Below are positions 10,391 to 22,881 of a DNA stretch of 44,165 bases, one piece after another (position 1 is the stretch's first letter; each line of letters begins with the position of its first letter). The stretch comes from a virus, in the UHGV virus genome UHGV-1352852. One strand, 5' to 3'. Under the pieces are notes generated by a model. It was given only the letters and a program-made list of their open reading frames with translations. It was not told the origin of the DNA and made no database searches. The translations under genes were made by a program, and so were the position numbers.

Positions 10391-11440
10391 TTAAGCACCG
10401 ACACCAGTTACCAGGAAGGCAATCGGCACATGCTTACGCTCAACAACACGGTTCCAGTTGGAGGCGTTCGCCAGGTCCTGCCATGAAGCAGAGCGCGGGG
10501 TAGTCTCAGTACCGTTACCGGTGATTACCGCACTGGTGAAGCTGTAGCCCAGTGGGTGCAGCAACCAGGTCTTACGGGTCCACAGGGTTTCAACGCCGCC
10601 GCCATTGCCGCGGGACGCTTCGCGCTCGTATTCCAGCGGGTTGGACGGAGAACCTTCACCGTAACCGATAGCGCCGTTACCGAAGATGATGGAGATGAAC
10701 TTACGGCTAGGGCCAGTACCGACTACGGTCATGCTGTCGTCAACAATAACACGGTAGCCCTGGTAGGTGGCGAACATGGTGTTGTTGTCGGCGTCTTTGA
10801 TGAAGTCAATAAGCTGCTGCTTACGGGCCTGCGCATAAACGAAGCTGTGCATCGCGATAGCGCCCAGCACTTCACCGCCGTTACCCATCAGAGCATCACC
10901 CATAGTCTGGGTAGCGTCGATGAACGCGCCCGCGTCGAAGCCCAGAGTAGATGACACGTCGATTACCATGTCATTCTGCTCGTGGTATGCGTCGGTAGCG
11001 GCCACGTTGTCATTATACAGGCCAAGCGCAGTAGCAATCAGACGGCGTTGCGCCTGGCGCTGCCAGAAGTTATCCAGGCGAGAAGCCACAGATTGCAGCG
11101 GGTTCTGGCTGGTCAGTTCAACGGTCAGGTCAGCCTGGCCAAAACCTTCGTTCAGGTAAGCTACGCGCGCCATCATCTCACCGGTCTGGACATTACGCGG
11201 GGTAGCGATGTCCTGGTATACGTCGTTCGAGTAGTTTGGCTCGATAGATGTATCAATCGCTTTCCAGAAAGGAATATTAGCGATGTTGGACGGGCCGCGG
11301 GCAATCTCGGCGGCGTATGGGGTCGGGGTCAGAATACCAGACTGGAAGAACGCGGTTTTTTCTACCGGGTCCTCGGTCATATAAGACGCCAGGACCGGGA
11401 TGTTGCCAGTTACGATATCGCCGATAGTGGTAATTGCCAT
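10391..11440 (-). CDS. major capsid protein (HK97 fold)
   Basis: 349-aa ORF downstream of the scaffold gene with a terminator after it; composition and length typical of siphovirus major capsid proteins. Confidence 0.8.
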   Translation of the reverse strand: MAITTIGDIVTGNIPVLASYMTEDPVEKTAFFQSGILTPTPYAAEIARGPSNIANIPFWKAIDTSIEPNYSNDVYQDIATPRNVQTGEMMARVAYLNEGFGQADLTVELTSQNPLQSVASRLDNFWQRQAQRRLIATALGLYNDNVAATDAYHEQNDMVIDVSSTLGFDAGAFIDATQTMGDALMGNGGEVLGAIAMHSFVYAQARKQQLIDFIKDADNNTMFATYQGYRVIVDDSMTVVGTGPSRKFISIIFGNGAIGYGEGSPSNPLEYEREASRGNGGGVETLWTRKTWLLHPLGYSFTSAVITGNGTETTPRSASWQDLANASNWNRVVERKHVPIAFLVTGVGA

Positions 11441-11442
11441 TA

Positions 11443-12144
11443 TTATTTCCTCAGGGCTTTAAGTTGCCGTTCAAATTCGGCAGGGTTCGATTTATACAGA
11501 GCTAAACGCTCCGCTTCACTCATGTCTTTAAACGCTGGTGCGGCCCCGCCGCCTTTGCTACCGGAAGCCCCGCCGCCGGAAGCTGCATTTGCTTTAATCA
11601 AATGCGAAAACGCTTTGTGTTCACGCAGATATTTACGGAACTGTTCCGGGTCAGTCGTGATTACGTTTCCGTCTGCACCAACAAACTTAGTAACCACATC
11701 GTCACCTTCGAACTCAGTCTTGACGAACGGCGCAAGGATGTCCACTGCTTCCGGGGTAATAAAGTCACCTGCGAAAGAGCCTAACACCGCTTTACGTTCG
11801 CTGCCGAGGATGCGCTCCGCCATTCTGGAGATGCGACCGTCTTTCTCGGCTAACACCGGGTCATACTGGCTACGAATCGTCTTTTCGAACTCGTCCATCT
11901 TACCTGCGGCTTTTAACGCCTCCTGGTGTGCGCGCTGCCGTTCTTCTTCGGCCTCTTTTGCTTTGCGAGCGGCTTCTTTCTTCTCCGCCAGCAATGCTTC
12001 CTGATTGGCCTTAAGCCCGGCAACTTCTTTCTCAATCAGCGCCTGAACTTCTTCAGCGGTGAACATTTTCGGCGCGCCACCGCCACCGGCTTTATCTTCT
12101 ACCCCAGCTTCTTCCCGGAACGGATAACGTAAAAAACGATTCAT
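11443..12144 (-). CDS. scaffolding protein
   Basis: Track ORF 11443..12198; ATG at 12144 (MNRFLRYPF). Highly charged Ala/Glu/Lys-rich coiled-coil protein directly upstream of the capsid gene. Confidence 0.65.
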   Translation of the reverse strand: MNRFLRYPFREEAGVEDKAGGGGAPKMFTAEEVQALIEKEVAGLKANQEALLAEKKEAARKAKEAEEERQRAHQEALKAAGKMDEFEKTIRSQYDPVLAEKDGRISRMAERILGSERKAVLGSFAGDFITPEAVDILAPFVKTEFEGDDVVTKFVGADGNVITTDPEQFRKYLREHKAFSHLIKANAASGGGASGSKGGGAAPAFKDMSEAERLALYKSNPAEFERQLKALRK

Positions 12145-12359
12145 AGTCAGTATGTCCCCTGGACGTTGGAACCCGGGCCACCCGGATTTACATGTCAAGA
12201 ATAAATTATTACTGATTATGTTGCAACCTGGAATAATTTACTCAACTACCCCGCCACAGCTTACGGTTGCGATACAAAGATTCCCGCTTAACCGGGTTGG
12301 CAATAGCCTTGATAGCGTTCTTAAGTTTCTGGTGTTTAAGGTCTTCTAAACTGAACGGT

Positions 12360-12629
12360 TTAGTCGGCATTTGTTATGTTCCTCACGTAATCCTGCAACA
12401 TGAACACTTTCAGCCTCAGTTGCCGTACACATTCGGCGTTCTGAACGTCGATAGCCAAATCCTCATCGGCGTCGCTACTTGGCAGCGCCAGCTTGCACGG
12501 CGGCTGCATCATTGTCATATCCGGGGATGGAATTGGCGTTTGCGACGGCGCGGGACTTGAGCTGCACGCGCTCAGGGTCAAAAGTGCACACGCTGCGACC
12601 AGGCGTTCTAATGTACTTAACGACTTCAC
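12360..12629 (-). CDS. o-spanin (Rz1-like outer-membrane lipoprotein)
   Basis: GTG start; lipobox LTLSAC followed by Pro-rich periplasmic segment; embedded in and extending beyond the i-spanin gene in another frame. Confidence 0.6.
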   Translation of the reverse strand: MKSLSTLERLVAACALLTLSACSSSPAPSQTPIPSPDMTMMQPPCKLALPSSDADEDLAIDVQNAECVRQLRLKVFMLQDYVRNITNAD

Positions 12630-12861
12630 GGGTAATCACCTCTGATTTCGTCTTGCCTTCGTTGTCAGCGGCGGCGGCCTTCGATTCGTCCTGCTGCTGC
12701 CGTTGTGTTTTCTTTACCAGCTCGGCCTGTGATTTCTGCTGTTGCTGCGAAACGAGATTAGCGCGGCCTTCGTTCCAGCCGATGCGGTACTGGTAGATGC
12801 CGTGTGCGTAAGCCAGGATGACGAAACATGCTCCTGCTACGACAGTTGCTTTAAGATTCAT
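12475..12861 (-). CDS. i-spanin (Rz-like)
   Basis: N-terminal TM helix (LKATVVAGACFVILAYAHGIY) then charged Gln/Lys-rich periplasmic domain; AAGGAGA RBS; overlaps the o-spanin gene. Confidence 0.55.
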   Translation of the reverse strand: MNLKATVVAGACFVILAYAHGIYQYRIGWNEGRANLVSQQQQKSQAELVKKTQRQQQDESKAAAADNEGKTKSEVITREVVKYIRTPGRSVCTFDPERVQLKSRAVANANSIPGYDNDAAAVQAGAAK

Positions 12862-13112
12862 GTTTCTCCTTTCTCGATAAGTAAAGCCCCGCCTTAAAGC
12901 GGGGCGCTAGTCCTTATCATTTAAACATAGAAACGGCGTAATCTCAGTAAACCAGTTACTTTTTACACAAGCAATAGAGTATGGCCCTTCCGAACGCGTC
13001 AGCGTAACTACACTCAGGACTTACGTCCCGCTCCGTTACCTGCCCGCGCCGCGGTCGCTTGTTCATACTTCACAAGCTCAGGTGGAGCTTATCATATTTT
13101 TAGTGAAAAGTC

Positions 13113-13128
13113 AACTATTCGAATAGTT
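13113..13128. promoter_or_regulatory. perfect 16-bp palindrome AACTATTCGAATAGTT
   Basis: Read directly; same AATAG/CTATT half-sites as the operator family, in inverted arrangement, in a 375-bp intergenic region. Confidence 0.3.
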
Positions 13129-13180
13129 TATTCTAACATTTACAATTCGGTGGAATAACTGGAATACGTAAATAAATAGT

Positions 13181-13209
13181 TTGCGCACACCAACATAACA
13201 GGGTACTAT
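13181..13209 (+). promoter_or_regulatory. sigma70-like promoter TTGCGC-N17-TACTAT with embedded palindrome
   Basis: Near-identical to the copies at 4377 and 16229; ~28 nt upstream of the 13237 start. Confidence 0.5.
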
Positions 13210-13236
13210 TCAGTTAATTTAAACAGGAGATGAAAA

Positions 13237-13758
13237 ATGGTTACTACAGTAATTACTTTCCCTGCGTATGTAGGGGCGAAAATATGCAGGGCTAAAAATG
13301 ATGTTCGCTACTATTTGAACGCTTTTTACATAGACCCTGAAGGATTGATAGTGTCTACGGACGGTCATAGATTGTTCTGCGACAATGTGAAGACCAACGT
13401 TGAGAAAGGGACTCTCATAGACATCAAAGGGAGAGAGCCTTCTAAATTTAACTACGCGGAGGTAAACCACGACAACGGCAGTGTATCTTTCTATGACGAT
13501 AATCGTGCGCTTATATGTACACTTCCGGTAGATGTTGTAGAAGGAAACTTTCCTGACTGGAGACGCGTGGCGCACATCACACCGGGTGTTGTCGATAGTA
13601 TAGGGTTCACCCTGCGTTATTTGGCAGACGCGTACAAGATTTCTAAGGCATACAAAAATGAAATTGCTCGTTTCGATTTCCAGGACCAAACCAGAGGATG
13701 TAAAATACTATTTTCAAACACGGCCTTTATGGTGTTAATGCCTGCGCGATTTAAATAA
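13237..13758 (+). CDS. beta sliding clamp (DnaN)-derived mini-protein
   Basis: Carries DnaN hallmark motifs in order: DVRYYLN, TDGHRL, GNFPDWRRV, IGFTLRYLADA and C-terminal FMVLMPARF (compare E. coli DnaN DVRYYLNG, TDGHRL, GRFPDYRRV, IGFNVSYVLDV, YVVMPMRL). AGGAGA RBS; terminator downstream. Confidence 0.7.
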   Translation: MVTTVITFPAYVGAKICRAKNDVRYYLNAFYIDPEGLIVSTDGHRLFCDNVKTNVEKGTLIDIKGREPSKFNYAEVNHDNGSVSFYDDNRALICTLPVDVVEGNFPDWRRVAHITPGVVDSIGFTLRYLADAYKISKAYKNEIARFDFQDQTRGCKILFSNTAFMVLMPARFK

Positions 13759-13761
13759 AAC

Positions 13762-13785
13762 TAGGGCCCCATACGGGGCCTTTTA
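13762..13785 (+). terminator. rho-independent terminator
   Basis: Hairpin GGGCCCCATACGGGGCC followed by TTTT, directly after the DnaN-like gene. Confidence 0.55.
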
Positions 13786-14247
13786 TCATTCTGGCTTAGT
13801 GACCTTCGCCGCTTTACTGAAGGCCTCTACGCCATCGGCATCGGTAACCTTGACGAAGTATTCACCGACTGCATTAACCGTCAGAGACAAAGCCTCTTCA
13901 GGTGCGTTTACCACTTCCTTACCGTCTTTGTACCAGGTCAGCACATATGGCGCTTTACCAGCCTTAACTTCGACAGTGAGAGTCGCGCTGCCGTCTGTCA
14001 GTTCGGTATCCTGCGGTTGCGCAGAGAAATACACGTCTCCAGCGTCTGCCAGATACGGAATCTCGTAAAGCATACCTGCGGTCGGTAGCGCAATACCAGT
14101 TTTATCTGCAAACGGCATATCGTCTACAGGTGTACCGAGTACACTTTCATCTTCAATAAATACCACGTTCTCACCGGAGCCAGACACACGGGCGTACTGG
14201 ACTACGCGACGCGACGGTACGTCAGTTACTTTGAAAAAGCCCATCAT
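13786..14247 (-). CDS. Ig-like domain structural protein
   Basis: Segment TLTVEVKAGKAPYVLTWYKDGKEV...GEYFVKVTDADG is Ig-like; downstream of the head-morphogenesis gene. Confidence 0.45.
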   Translation of the reverse strand: MMGFFKVTDVPSRRVVQYARVSGSGENVVFIEDESVLGTPVDDMPFADKTGIALPTAGMLYEIPYLADAGDVYFSAQPQDTELTDGSATLTVEVKAGKAPYVLTWYKDGKEVVNAPEEALSLTVNAVGEYFVKVTDADGVEAFSKAAKVTKPE

Positions 14248-16184
14248 TATTCCCCTTTCAGATAATCAGCAACACGTTTATCGAGTTCCGCCATCTGCTT
14301 AAGCGTGAGCGGACGCCCAAAACCATCTACAGATATTACGCGAAACTCCTCTGGTGATATACCGCTGTTACGGAAAATCTTACCGCGAACAGGGCCGAGC
14401 GCCTGGTCCTGAAACCATGCGGGCTGTTGTTTAAGGAACTCGTAGTAGGTTGTGTCCGCGCTTACCTGAGTACCGCCGTCCGCCCCGCGTGCCGCGCGTT
14501 TTGCGCCTTTATCAAGGAAGTCGAACTCCGAGCTAATCACCGGGGCCGTGGTACTTCTGCAATTCGGATGCGCTGGCGGCATCGGCCCTTTTCCAATTTC
14601 CCACGTCATTCCGTCTCTGGCCCTGCAATTCTTGACTATCGCACTACCTGCTGTATAATATCCTTGACTACTAGAGAGGGTATAAACATGGCACGTTCTA
14701 AACTCGACGCTTATGCGGATGATATTTGTTCTTTGTACCGAGATGGCACTCCCGCCAGCATCATAGCCAAGAATTACGGCGTCACTACCACCACGGTAAC
14801 AACATTTCTCAAGAAGCTCGGACTCATGCATGATCGACCCCGTGGTTGGGTTTCTAACGACACCATTTTGAATCAAAAAAGGGCTATAGAATTGTTCGAG
14901 TCCGGCGTCCCGCCTATTGAGTGCATAAGAAGGACCCAAGTAAGCAAAACAGTTTTCTATTCTATGGTCAAAACACTTGGCCTCGCTAAGCGCGGGCACA
15001 CTCACAGGACATTCACCCCGGAGGAGAAAATCGCCAGAGCTATCGTCCGACAGCAAAGCGGCGCTATGAATAAGACTGAAACCCTCGCTTTTGAATTGTT
15101 TAATTCCGCTGGCGTGGACGTAGTTCCGCAGTTTGCAATCGGCCCGTACAATGTCGATTTTGCCATTGAGTCCCACTCCATCGCCATAGAAATCTGTTGC
15201 CGCGGGACTCGTGCTTACCATTTTCCTGATGGGGAAATCAGCGAGCGTATTAAAAATATAATCCGCTCTGGCTGGCATGTTTATGTTCTTCACTGTTTCG
15301 AGCACAGTCACTTTGTCAACAGTGGTATACAAGACATGCTTAGTTGGATCGAGTTCATCAAGCGGAGTCCATCCGTATTGCGTGAGTACAGGGTGTTTCG
15401 GGGTGCCACTGAACTTCTCGCCGTTGGAAAGTTCGATGGTAAAGATTTTTCCTGAATAGAGTCCGCGCATTACCGCGTCCATCCCCGCGATGGGCGCTAA
15501 TTCTGTTTCAGCCGTGAAACACGTTGTACTGGTACGGCTGTCCAGCGTTGACACCCACTCGTATTTCTCGATGATGTCGTCGTTCTGGCGGTACGTCTCG
15601 TTACGGGCTTCGTTGGATACGTGAGCCAGCGCCGTACGTATTACGGTAGCGGCGTTACGCTCAGAGATGTCGGCCAGTCCGCCAGCGCCTACAACATTCT
15701 TAACAATCTGCCGTGTGGTTTGACCCTGAACAAAGCCCATCTTAACGCCAGTTACCAGGCGCGATACTTCTGTTTCACCCCAGCCACCCATCAGCTTAGT
15801 GAAATCTACTGGCTTGTCGCTTAACGACAGAGGCTGAAACTCGGCAGCGGCCCACACCTGTTCGGCAGTAGGCGTAACAAATTCAGCGTTGACGTTGGCC
15901 GTGAGTGTCTTTACATTCCACTCAGCCTCATACGCCGCCAGGTCCTTAAGGTCTTCTGTCAGCTTTGTTTGCCAGTCACCCGTAAGTCCTGTCAGTGCTT
16001 CTTCTAGGTCGCGTAACAATTTATTCAGTCGCGCAGTGCTTCGCCCGTCGTCACCGAATAACAGCACCTGCCGTTTGATTTCATCCCGCATCTCCTGAAT
16101 GAACGGTGTGAGGTCTTTCACTTCGCCGGATGCGGTGCGTTGCAGCCATATCTGGTGGCTGATTAGGGATGTAAGTAAGCTCAT
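14247..16184 (-). CDS. head morphogenesis protein (Mu F / SPP1 gp7-like), intein-containing
   Basis: Track ORF 14247..16241; ATG at 16184 (MSLLTSL) with GGAGGG RBS. C-terminal PPAHPNCRS motif typical of the Mu F family; central ~300-aa insertion with intein motifs. Confidence 0.7.
   Translation of the reverse strand: MSLLTSLISHQIWLQRTASGEVKDLTPFIQEMRDEIKRQVLLFGDDGRSTARLNKLLRDLEEALTGLTGDWQTKLTEDLKDLAAYEAEWNVKTLTANVNAEFVTPTAEQVWAAAEFQPLSLSDKPVDFTKLMGGWGETEVSRLVTGVKMGFVQGQTTRQIVKNVVGAGGLADISERNAATVIRTALAHVSNEARNETYRQNDDIIEKYEWVSTLDSRTSTTCFTAETELAPIAGMDAVMRGLYSGKIFTIELSNGEKFSGTPKHPVLTQYGWTPLDELDPTKHVLYTTVDKVTVLETVKNINMPARADYIFNTLADFPIRKMVSTSPAATDFYGDGVGLNGKIDIVRADCKLRNYVHASGIKQFKSEGFSLIHSAALLSDDSSGDFLLRGECPVSVPALSEAKCFDHRIENCFAYLGPSYALNRRDAGLEQFYSPFLIQNGVVRNPTTGSIMHESELLEKCCYRGGSDAVILGYDAGGSAISVQRTNIIRISVEFRTCHVYTLSSSQGYYTAGSAIVKNCRARDGMTWEIGKGPMPPAHPNCRSTTAPVISSEFDFLDKGAKRAARGADGGTQVSADTTYYEFLKQQPAWFQDQALGPVRGKIFRNSGISPEEFRVISVDGFGRPLTLKQMAELDKRVADYLKGE
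14632..14659 (+). promoter_or_regulatory. sigma70 promoter TTGACT-N16-TATAAT for the intein-embedded endonuclease gene
   Basis: Near-consensus -35 and -10 hexamers read directly; GAGAGGG RBS follows ~8 nt before the ATG at 14688. Confidence 0.55.
14688..15455 (+). CDS. homing endonuclease-like protein: two HTH motifs + Vsr-like (DUF559) PD-(D/E)XK nuclease domain
   Basis: Internal ATG of track ORF 14427..15455. HTH segments SIIAKNYGVTTTTVTTFLKKLGL and IECIRRTQVSKTVFYSMVKTLGL; C-terminal core YNVDFAIESHSIAIEI...GWHVYVL; encoded antisense within the intein. Confidence 0.6.
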   Translation: MARSKLDAYADDICSLYRDGTPASIIAKNYGVTTTTVTTFLKKLGLMHDRPRGWVSNDTILNQKRAIELFESGVPPIECIRRTQVSKTVFYSMVKTLGLAKRGHTHRTFTPEEKIARAIVRQQSGAMNKTETLAFELFNSAGVDVVPQFAIGPYNVDFAIESHSIAIEICCRGTRAYHFPDGEISERIKNIIRSGWHVYVLHCFEHSHFVNSGIQDMLSWIEFIKRSPSVLREYRVFRGATELLAVGKFDGKDFS

Positions 16185-16228
16185 ATGCCCTCCTGTAGTA
16201 TCGCCAGTGTAACGCATAAAAATAATAT

Positions 16229-16257
16229 TTGCAGACACCAATATAATAGGGTACTAT
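16229..16257 (+). promoter_or_regulatory. sigma70-like promoter TTGCAG-N17-TACTAT with embedded palindrome
   Basis: Third near-identical copy; leader shares TATCGAAACGAGA with the copy at 26613. Confidence 0.5.
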
Positions 16258-16505: not shown

Positions 16506-16532
16506 ACTAAGGCCCCGAAAGGGGCCTTTTTC
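16506..16532. terminator. bidirectional rho-independent terminator
   Basis: Hairpin AGGCCCCGAAAGGGGCCT flanked by an A-run and TTTTT; lies between the convergent 16292 gene and the portal gene. Confidence 0.55.
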
Positions 16533-21844: not shown

Positions 21845-22330
21845 TCATTTAACAGCCCTCCCAATAGCCTCCGCCTCCTGCCACGGTTTACCGTTGAACA
21901 ATGCCAGCCGCCCGGCTGTACGGCGACGCAGGCCAAGTAGTGGTTTGCCGTTCTGGTTGATGAACAGTGCCAGCTTAGCCCGCAGTGTTGCAGTATCACC
22001 AGAACGCAGTGCCTTGCCTGTGCCCGTAGTAGACGCAATCACGCCAGCGCCAGCGTTATACACCAGGTCACACACTGCGTCGAACTGCGCCTGTGTCAGT
22101 GAATGGTGCGCCGCTGCATCAACCGCAGCTACGGCCTTAGCCATATCACGGTTCAGTAACAGGAGGCCTTGCCCCGGGGTGATGGTCTTACCTGGTGTTA
22201 CGTCTGGCCCGTAGTGACCGTAGCCTATAGTCAGGTACTTCTCATTTGGGGTAGCGCGATACGCGGTACCGCGGAATCCCTCGAACGCGGCGGTAAAATG
22301 CAATCCATTATCTGAAATGTTTCGAGACAC
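21845..22330 (-). CDS. endolysin, T4 lysozyme-like (GH24 muramidase)
   Basis: Motif FEGFRGTAYRATPNEKYLTIGYGHYG carries the GH24 catalytic Glu/Asp/Thr pattern; GTG start at ~22330 preceded by GGAGGA (track ORF runs to 22381). Confidence 0.8.
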   Translation of the reverse strand: MSRNISDNGLHFTAAFEGFRGTAYRATPNEKYLTIGYGHYGPDVTPGKTITPGQGLLLLNRDMAKAVAAVDAAAHHSLTQAQFDAVCDLVYNAGAGVIASTTGTGKALRSGDTATLRAKLALFINQNGKPLLGLRRRTAGRLALFNGKPWQEAEAIGRAVK

Positions 22331-22580
22331 GCTTATGTCCTCCGTATGACAGCCACGCCTGACGAATCTGACGCAGCGCAACTAATGTGATTAACGTCTC
22401 AGGCAGCGTTGGTGACATGCTGCTCTGTAACAGGTGTATACATCCGGCAGCACAGACGATGGCAGTCAGGATATAGAGCACCCGACCGAATAACCCGTCG
22501 TCCACGCTGGGGTGATATACATTAAACAGCGATGTGCCTCCTATTACCAGCATACCGCCGAACCAGAATAGCTCATTCAT
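22308..22580 (-). CDS. holin-like protein (two TM helices)
   Basis: Internal ATG (MNELFWFGGMLVIGG...) of track ORF 22308..22742 with GAGGAGG RBS; two hydrophobic helices; directly upstream of the endolysin. Confidence 0.5.
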   Translation of the reverse strand: MNELFWFGGMLVIGGTSLFNVYHPSVDDGLFGRVLYILTAIVCAAGCIHLLQSSMSPTLPETLITLVALRQIRQAWLSYGGHKRVSKHFR

Positions 22581-22881
22581 CTGTGCCTCCTCGACGTGCA
22601 ATGTATTCTCCGGCGACGATACCAGAGAGACGGGAATAGATAGGCATCCAGAGAATAGCGATAATGAAGCCCAGGCCAGCGATTTCACGGTCGCCAGTGA
22701 TACCGAACCATTGAGCTGCGAGAGGTGCGCCAAATACGGCACAAGTGAAGCCAGTAGCGATAAAGCAGAAGCCGTCGATAGGGCCAGAAATAACGGACTT
22801 ATGTTGTCGTAGTCCGATTACCCCACCGGCTAGTGCGGCAGCCAGAAGCCAGCCTGTCACTGTTTCAGTAAATTTATCCAA
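22573..22881 (-). CDS. holin (multi-TM)
   Basis: 102-aa protein with three hydrophobic segments; TTG start preceded by GGAGGA; first gene of the lysis cassette. Confidence 0.55.
   Translation of the reverse strand: MDKFTETVTGWLLAAALAGGVIGLRQHKSVISGPIDGFCFIATGFTCAVFGAPLAAQWFGITGDREIAGLGFIIAILWMPIYSRLSGIVAGEYIARRGGTDE

Follow-up and report, generated by a model that had tools for sequence, protein, structure and literature searches.

An overlapped spanin pair, assigned from sequence to the Jersey family, lies among the head genes of a Kagunavirus coliphage, apart from the holin-endolysin cassette

Spanins disrupt the outer membrane of the host as the final step of lysis. Those of phages infecting Gram-negative hosts were surveyed by Kongari et al. 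(2018, BMC Bioinformatics 19:326, PMC6139136), who defined embedded, overlapped and separated architectures of the two genes and found spanins in 586 of 677 such phages. One of their families, designated 'Jersey', has 27-28 members (Jersey, SETP3, SE2, K1G, K1H, K1ind1-3, SSL-2009a, HK578 and others), and a 155-bp overlap of the two genes is recorded for K1G, K1H and Jersey. For K1G, Table S1 of that survey gives an i-spanin of 128 aa and an o-spanin with the signal MKSLSTLKRLVAACALLTLSA and a mature protein beginning CSSSPAPSQ. A location of spanin genes apart from the other lysis genes has also been described. The precedent is T4 (Kongari et al. 2018, Fig. 8 legend, PMC6139136). For phage Schulenberg the spanins are stated to be separate from the holin and endolysin (PMC6763661), and in the Kagunavirus Golestan and the Jerseyvirus SeF1 the spanins are ORF7/8 and gp009/010, while the holins and endolysin are ORF66-68 and gp063-065, respectively (PMC7203180, PMC9409062). 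Both the gene pair and its separation from the other lysis genes are therefore already published for the phage group to which the locus examined here belongs.

The DNA analysed in this study (the window: 44,165 nucleotides of the virus genome UHGV-1352852) is that of a Kagunavirus (Guernseyvirinae) coliphage. Its spanin region is 94-96% identical to those of other coliphages of this genus (XY2, Schulenburg and Ivi among them). In all, 484 phage records match this region, most of them from Salmonella Jerseyviruses, and in several an i-spanin and an o-spanin are already annotated at the same spot. We consider it very probable that the gene pair is the two-component spanin of this phage, a member of the published Jersey family with overlapped architecture, because PHROG homology, membrane signals, conservation of two reading frames and the published family all agree. 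The features of the pair are as follows.

12475-12861, minus strand: putative i-spanin gene (ORF, 128 aa, ATG start; phrog_2536), with an N-terminal transmembrane helix, a periplasmic helical/charged domain and a periplasmic Cys92
12793-12849, minus strand: codons of the predicted i-spanin transmembrane segment (approximately residues 5-23, ATVVAGACFVILAYAHGIY)
12866-12871, minus strand: strong i-spanin Shine-Dalgarno sequence AAGGAG, from reading the sequence
12360-12629, minus strand: putative o-spanin gene (ORF, 89-aa precursor, GTG start, +1 frame; phrog_1267, phrog_5672), with a lipoprotein signal peptide, a Pro-rich linker and a conserved C-terminal half
12635-12642, minus strand: strong o-spanin Shine-Dalgarno sequence GAGGTGAT, 5 nt upstream of the GTG and internal to the i-spanin gene
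12564-12566, minus strand: codon of the lipobox cysteine (Cys22), signal MKSLSTLERLVAACALLTLSA followed by CSSS, lipobox L-S-A-C, from a rule-based scan
12475-12629, minus strand: dual-coding overlap of 155 nt (i-spanin C-terminus; o-spanin signal peptide and Pro-rich linker), frame offset +1

The larger protein is matched over its whole length by phrog_2536 ('Rz-like spanin', E=3e-54) and, weakly, by three other Rz-like PHROGs. Residues 5-23 give the highest Kyte-Doolittle 19-mer (mean 1.7) and form the only segment above threshold; the remaining 102 residues are polar or charged (28 charged, 11 Gln). The Shine-Dalgarno context of the gene is the one given for the K1G i-spanin in Table S1 of Kongari et al. 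(2018, PMC6139136), and the periplasmic cysteine (Cys92 here) is kept in the aligned sequences of the relatives. An AlphaFold2 single-sequence model places residues 3-63, including the transmembrane residues, in a helix (pLDDT 73-91); a further helix (residues 69-84) is of low confidence, and residues 85-128 have pLDDT below 50. For the i-spanin of the Jersey subfamily, Kongari et al. (2018, PMC6139136) predicted a helix, a beta-containing linker and then another helix. A sequence search of the PDB with the i-spanin returned no relative with a solved structure. Among the curated Pfam and NCBIfam models none reached its cut-off for either member of the pair, the only matches being weak and driven by the signal peptide; DUF2514 (Pfam), for instance, scored 16.7 bits against a curated cut-off of 26.

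The smaller protein has the features of an exported lipoprotein: a basic n-region, a hydrophobic core and the lipobox L-S-A-C. The rule-based scan that called this signal covered all six frames of the 44-kb window, in which it detected no other ORF with a credible lipoprotein signal; nor did the window contain another spanin candidate. The predicted mature protein comprises 68 aa, with 8 Pro and 3 Cys (the lipobox Cys22, Cys45 and Cys67). Its residue +2 is Ser, and the Asp inner-membrane retention signal is absent. A different lipobox, VAAC (Cys14), had been returned by our first regular expression. We rejected it in favour of Cys22, since Cys14 leaves a hydrophobic core of only 4 residues, and Cys22 is both conserved and the residue assigned by Kongari et al. 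The o-spanin matches the 'Rz-like spanin' families phrog_1267 (E=5.5e-20) and phrog_5672 (E=1.3e-29), and its match to P2 LysC is weak (NCBIfam P2_Rz1, NF038368: 13.7 bits, cut-off 27).

It should be borne in mind that this gene is often missed by gene callers, or is called as a 48-aa stub devoid of a signal peptide, and that this also holds for curated records. The form supported by sequence conservation is the GTG-initiated o-spanin of 89 aa, rather than the 48-aa annotation. Among the loci with a 155-nt overlap, the length of 89 aa is itself peculiar to this one. An insertion of approximately 139 nt at the 3' end of the gene alters the C-terminus, and because of it the protein ends in ...NITNAD, whereas at all other loci with a 155-nt overlap it ends in ...NILE or ...NIME (87 aa). 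None of 490 related phage records has the insertion; two metagenome contigs share it. It also adds an orphan 42-aa ORF. No homolog of this ORF was found in the phage collection or the PHROGs, and searches of E. coli genomes and IMG/VR with its DNA gave no match.

The o-spanin gene starts within the i-spanin gene and runs 115 nt past its stop (the two genes end at 12360 and 12475, respectively). The earlier note on this DNA, made from the sequence alone, had recognised an Rz-like i-spanin with an N-terminal transmembrane segment and a charged periplasmic domain, together with an out-of-frame, Pro-rich, Rz1-like lipoprotein with the lipobox LTLSAC. Hydropathy, composition and PHROG matches agree with the former description, and the latter is borne out by the positive rule-based call at Cys22 and by the proline content of the mature protein. 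The note had called the pair "overlapped" in its title and the lipoprotein gene "embedded" in its text: the overlap and the shift of frame stand, but the embedding does not, given the 115 nt beyond the i-spanin stop.

The conservation of the overlapping frames was examined in 54 related loci (6 from GenBank phages and 48 from IMG/VR). A +1 ORF with a hydrophobic N-terminus, the same start position and a lipobox cysteine was kept in every one of them, as were the equivalents of Cys45 and Cys67. The lipobox itself varied (LSAC, LASC, LTSC, MSAC, LSGC, LNGC, ITGC, MTGC), and so did residue +2 (Ser, Asn, Arg, Gln, Gly or Ala), which was Asp in none of the 54. Upstream of the o-spanin start, the Shine-Dalgarno sequence is conserved across the Kagunavirus loci as gaggtgat or gaggtaat. 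The i-spanin was 85-94% identical to its counterparts in Kagunavirus and 60-66% to those in Jerseyvirus; for the C-terminal half of the o-spanin, the values were 77-89% for most of the Jerseyvirus records listed and 61-66% for two St16x phages.

The pN/pS ratios, calculated from 42 distinct sequences, were 0.35 for the i-frame in the i-spanin-only zone and 0.17 for the o-frame in the o-spanin-only zone. Within the overlap they were 0.47 for the i-frame and 1.03 for the o-frame, and the control (non-coding) frames of the various zones gave 1.0-1.9. The constrained frame of the overlap is thus the i-frame. Exactly at the end of the i-spanin gene, the most variable codon position changes from the third position of the i-frame to the third position of the o-frame. 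With a ratio of about 1 in the overlap and of 0.17 beyond it, the signal peptide and linker of the o-spanin therefore drift, retaining no more than their overall character, and strong conservation is seen in its C-terminal half. The same pattern was reported for the Jersey family by Kongari et al. (2018, PMC6139136).

The ratio near unity within the overlap, which resembles that of the non-coding control frames, is also an argument for supposing that only the 128-aa gene is real, and that the +1 ORF is fortuitous and its lipobox coincidental. The habit of gene callers of missing the o-spanin, or of reporting the 48-aa stub, points the same way. We regard this explanation as extremely improbable, however. 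Past the i-spanin stop the o-frame is under strong constraint and the variability moves to its third codon position. The start, the Shine-Dalgarno sequence, the hydrophobic core, the lipobox cysteine and the two further cysteines persist where the i-spanins are only 40-60% identical, and the C-terminal half matches PHROG profiles at E=1e-29. Scarcely more probable is the proposal that both genes are real and form some other envelope system unrelated to lysis, e.g. a superinfection-exclusion lipoprotein (Cor- or Llp-like) with a membrane partner. In its favour may be cited the position of the pair away from the lysis cassette, the failure of curated Pfam and NCBIfam spanin models to exceed their cut-offs, and our having found no experimental report for the Jersey spanin family. 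Against it, the i-spanin matches four independent Rz-like PHROG families and the o-spanin several (and P2 LysC weakly), and a +1 overlap with the gene of an inner-membrane partner is the hallmark of spanins; Cor and Llp are single genes. Moreover, this pair is the only spanin candidate of the window, spanins are found in the great majority of phages of Gram-negative hosts (the 586 of 677 mentioned above), and T4 provides a precedent for unlinked spanin genes (Kongari et al. 2018, PMC6139136). We found no published functional test of any Jersey-family spanin, and the assignment of the pair as spanins rests on topology signals and family membership.

The neighbourhood of the pair is made up of head genes, all on the minus strand, with one opposite-strand gene and a gap between the spanins and the upstream genes.

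10391-11440, minus strand: major capsid gene, downstream of the pair
11443-12144, minus strand: head scaffolding gene (phrog_206, E=3e-55), the next conserved gene downstream of the spanins, syntenic in all loci
12862-13236: gap of 375 bp, containing a 36-aa ORF and a conserved hairpin
13237-13758, plus strand: clamp-like gene, adjoining the gap
13786-14247, minus strand: Hoc-like head decoration gene (phrog_3945, E=1e-85), the upstream same-strand neighbour of the spanins
14247-16241, minus strand: MuF-like gene, upstream of the pair

The MuF-like gene carries an intein of 298 aa (14628-15521 of the window), which harbours an ORF of 255 aa on the opposite strand (14688-15455). This ORF gives weak helix-turn-helix and Vsr-like (MTES_1575) nuclease matches and has its own promoter-like and terminator-like sites. 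Homologs of its product occur inside MuF inteins of Gordonia, Aggregatibacter, Salmonella and E. coli phages, opposite to the MuF gene in all three cases checked, and the sense frame of the middle of the intein shows no similarity. A 2025 preprint (bioRxiv 10.1101/2025.01.02.630785) describes an intein architecture with an 'anti-sense VSR-like HEN', for actinobacteriophages alone.

The remaining lysis genes are found at a considerable distance, on the same strand, 9.0-10.0 kb upstream of the spanin start.

22573-22881, minus strand: holin gene 1, 102 aa, TTG start, two hydrophobic segments above threshold (phrog_2359 holin, E=4e-29)
22308-22580, minus strand: holin/antiholin gene 2, 90 aa, ATG preceded by GAGGAGG (phrog_2508 holin, E=1.6e-32)
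21845-22330, minus strand: endolysin gene, 161 aa, GTG start (Pfam Phage_lysozyme, E=5e-27; endolysin PHROGs)

The earlier note was right on the position of the pair, which it had placed in the head gene region, between the scaffold gene and a 375-bp intergenic region and some 10 kb from holins and an endolysin at 21.8-22.9 kb. The separation is also seen in the synteny of the relatives. Every locus that was long enough showed the holin-holin-endolysin genes, about 9 kb of DNA with terminase, portal, MuF and Hoc genes, and then the spanin pair, scaffold and capsid genes, all on one strand. Kagunavirus, Jerseyvirus and a Klebsiella relative all have the order MuF-Hoc-(clamp)-spanins-scaffold-capsid, and the opposite-strand clamp-like gene is absent from most relatives. 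In Dhillonvirus the spanin pair follows directly after MuF, with the i-spanin gene overlapping the end of the MuF gene by 8 nt.

The same note had concluded that the lysis functions are split across two transcription units, which we consider plausible. A bidirectional hairpin terminator, annotated as such in Schulenburg and Snoke, lies at 13763-13782, 3' of the plus-strand gene 13237-13758 and between the Hoc and spanin genes. Further minus-strand hairpins followed by T residues are located at 16509-16528 and 12886-12905, and three such sites are thus present between the two loci in all. Promoter-like sites were found after the endolysin gene (21681-21653 and 21558-21530) and before the small terminase gene (19858-19829). 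For the spanin-scaffold block itself we found no sigma-70-like promoter: a scan of the region 10-14.5 kb returned 5 sites against 4.0 expected (chance level), none of them on the minus strand upstream of the i-spanin gene (12862-13236). Two candidates noticed by eye were dropped, namely TTTACT-16-TATGTT (approximately 12932-12959), not conserved in Jerseyvirus, and a TTGACA between the o-spanin and scaffold genes, which has no usable -10 element. We found no transcript maps for Guernseyvirinae or Jerseyvirus in the literature.

The last of the three sites deserves separate description.

12886-12905, minus strand: GC-rich hairpin, GCCCCGC-loop-GCGGGGC and then TTTACTTATC, approximately 15 nt upstream of the i-spanin Shine-Dalgarno sequence; terminator-like, with a weak U-tract

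The local fold of this hairpin has a z-score of -4.9. In the 7-bp stem, 98.7% of cells are paired across Kagunavirus and Jerseyvirus, with compensatory changes in 2 of the 7 pairs. By these sequence criteria the hairpin is real, because it folds well and its stem is kept by compensatory changes. Its U-tract is poor, especially in Jerseyvirus (TTAGCGTATAA).

It is conceivable, though we consider it unlikely, that the holin-endolysin cassette and the spanins belong to a single minus-strand unit, in which a long late transcript or read-through from the promoters at approximately 19.8-21.7 kb would continue through the terminase, portal, MuF and Hoc genes into the spanin-scaffold-capsid block, the hairpins acting as stabilisers or partial attenuators and not as boundaries. 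Such a unit is suggested by the shared strand of the genes in every relative, by the uninterrupted run in those (the majority) that lack the clamp-like gene, by the overlap of the i-spanin and MuF genes in Dhillonvirus, by the poor U-tract of the hairpin and by the want of a promoter-like site on the minus strand of 12862-13236. In the present phage, however, the plus-strand gene 13237-13758 and the bidirectional terminator at 13763-13782 intervene. The other two minus-strand hairpin-plus-T sites, and the promoter-like sites after the endolysin gene and before the small terminase gene, likewise speak for separate units. A more elaborate proposal is that the position of the spanins is a regulatory design, the hairpin serving as an attenuator or as an RNA-processing or stabilising element which sets spanin dosage together with that of the capsid genes, independently of the holin clock. 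This we regard as still more doubtful than a single unit.

By analogy with described spanins, we infer the following topology, complex formation, membrane fusion and transcript structure for the pair. The N-terminal helix of the 128-aa i-spanin would hold it in the inner membrane, with the N-terminus inside the cell, and its charged and mostly helical domain would reach into the periplasm. Its 89-aa partner would be exported, cleaved by signal peptidase II and lipidated at Cys22; because residue +2 is Ser rather than Asp, its destination would be the outer membrane, in the inner leaflet. The two proteins may bind each other through their periplasmic ends, giving a complex that crosses the periplasm, as in the case of lambda Rz/Rz1, and the conserved cysteines could link each of them into disulfide-bonded homodimers. 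Caged by the peptidoglycan mesh, the complexes would be inactive until the holins allow the endolysin to degrade the wall, upon which they would fuse the inner and outer membranes and so complete lysis. Standing first in the scaffold-capsid block, the two genes are most likely expressed along with those of the late structural proteins. A location away from the lysis cassette would be harmless, as spanins are inert until the wall has been degraded. The practical value of these observations lies in the quality of annotation, the o-spanin being so often recorded as a 48-aa stub or omitted.

Compared with known spanins, the pair most closely resembles the members of the Jersey family, with which it shares the +1 frame, the 155-bp overlap, the constant o-spanin Cys45 and Cys67 and the position beside the scaffold gene. 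The i-spanin has 128 aa, as in K1G, from which it differs at few positions, and there are likewise few differences from K1H. The K1G o-spanin signal (MKSLSTLKRLVAACALLTLSA, followed by CSS) is almost identical to the one found here (MKSLSTLERLVAACALLTLSA, followed by CSS), and the cleavage site is the same. It differs from the other loci with a 155-nt overlap in the o-spanin C-terminus, which here reads ...NITNAD, in a protein of 89 rather than 87 aa.

LysB/LysC of P2, the prototype of the overlapped class, have the same arrangement, the o-spanin gene beginning within that of the i-spanin, in the +1 frame, and passing its stop; they likewise pair a protein of the inner membrane with a lipoprotein of the outer membrane. 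The sequences have no significant relationship to judge from LysC (13.7 bits for P2_Rz1, against 27), and the P2 genes sit in the lysis cassette, whereas the pair described here lies approximately 9 kb away from it. The experimentally characterised Rz/Rz1 of lambda share the predicted topology and the inferred mechanism, and periplasmic cysteines are available for intermolecular disulfides. Lambda Rz1 is wholly inside Rz, however, whereas the o-spanin gene here continues 115 nt past the i-spanin stop, which departs from embedding of the lambda type; and Rz/Rz1 are the last genes of the lysis cassette, in contrast to the spanin genes of this phage, which lie outside it. In T4 the holin and endolysin genes are unlinked from each other, unlike those of the holin-holin-endolysin cassette found here, and its spanin genes do not overlap ('separated' class), unlike the present pair. 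As in the phage described here, the T4 spanins PseT.3/PseT.2 are encoded far from the holin t and the endolysin e (Kongari et al. 2018, PMC6139136). It has been understood since the work on T4 and the 2018 survey that spanin genes need not be linked to those of the holin and endolysin, since the proteins are inert until the wall is degraded.

The conserved form of the o-spanin is the GTG-initiated protein of 87-89 aa. The gene is commonly annotated, or called automatically, as one of 47-48 aa that starts from an internal methionine (MMQPPCK...), for example in the record of phage Schulenburg (L001, 12826-12972) and among the gene calls of L057-L062. This 47-48-aa form is without a signal peptide or lipobox, and in some contigs the o-spanin gene was left uncalled altogether. 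Moreover, the whole of phrog_5672 (47 positions) appears to have been built on the truncated protein.

A short insertion with an ORF of its own is found where the o-spanin gene ends:

about 12211-12378: insertion of roughly 139 nt, precisely at the o-spanin gene's 3' end
12242-12370, minus strand: 42-aa ORF (MPTKPFSLEDLKHQKLKNAIKAIANPVKRESLYRNRKLWRGS) carried by the insertion, with a GAGG Shine-Dalgarno sequence

The insertion alters the C-terminus of the o-spanin from ...NILE to ...NITNAD. It was covered by none of 490 related phage records and was present in none of the 48 IMG/VR loci. No protein homolog of the 42-aa ORF was found among phages or PHROGs, and its DNA was unmatched in E. coli genomes. 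Two metagenome contigs, Logan SRR31239429 and ENA ERZ28656071, carry the identical ORF in the same place.

On the other side of the pair, the region preceding the i-spanin gene contains three further elements, two of them within the 375-bp gap:

12886-12905, minus strand: GC-rich hairpin directly upstream of the i-spanin ribosome-binding site
12956-13066, minus strand: 36-aa ORF (MNKRPRRGQVTERDV...LYCLCKK) inside the gap, annotated as hypothetical in Schulenburg
13237-13758, plus strand: 173-aa clamp-like ORF between Hoc and the spanins, on the opposite strand

The hairpin is kept in both Kagunavirus and Jerseyvirus, with compensatory changes in the stem (C:G to G:C, C:G to U:A and G:C to A:U). 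Its U-tract is weak; possible roles are those of terminator, attenuator or stabiliser of the mRNA. The 36-aa ORF is near-invariant across most Kagunavirus loci. Several loci have no match to its N-terminal part, and in Jerseyvirus no more than the 3' third can be recognised, so that what is conserved here may be DNA or RNA and not a protein. The 173-aa ORF resembles only part of the DNA polymerase III beta clamp (the Pfam DNA_pol3_beta_2 match lies under the cut-off) and existing annotations call it either "sliding clamp" or "RusA-like". Since it was found in just a minority of the related loci, it behaves like an accessory insertion.

Other hairpins and a TTGACA hexamer lie between the genes of this block:

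12172-12198, read on the minus strand: TTGACA hexamer and, after it, a small hairpin (CCGGGTGGCCCGG), between the o-spanin gene and the scaffold start
13763-13782: bidirectional GGCCCC-loop-GGGGCC hairpin after Hoc, with T-runs on both sides
16509-16528: GGCCCC-loop-GGGGCC hairpin flanked by a T-run on either side, between the portal gene and the MuF gene

The small hairpin is conserved from Kagunavirus through Jerseyvirus; no usable -10 element follows the TTGACA hexamer. The two GGCCCC-loop-GGGGCC hairpins are similar to each other; inside the head gene block they may be terminators that work in both directions, or elements that affect RNA stability.

The MuF-like gene itself contains an intein, within which an ORF is encoded on the opposite strand:

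14247-16241, minus strand: MuF-like head morphogenesis gene
14628-15521, minus strand: intein of 298 aa (C241 to N538, followed by Cys)
14688-15455, plus strand: antisense ORF of 255 aa, wholly within the intein
14632-14659, plus strand: promoter-like site of the antisense ORF
15475-15497, plus strand: terminator-like site of the antisense ORF

Homologs of the antisense protein (23-30% identity; lowest tblastn E-value against the phage collection 7e-12) sit within MuF inteins of Gordonia, Aggregatibacter, Idiomarinaceae, Salmonella and E. coli phages, and in all three cases checked the frame was open and antisense to MuF. In the sense frame, no similarity was detectable in the middle of the intein. 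The antisense protein also gave weak matches to HTH_7 and to the Vsr-like REase_MTES_1575.

The arrangement of this intein and its antisense ORF corresponds to the "anti-sense VSR-like HEN" intein architecture, which a 2025 preprint describes only for minor capsid proteins of actinobacteriophages (bioRxiv 10.1101/2025.01.02.630785).
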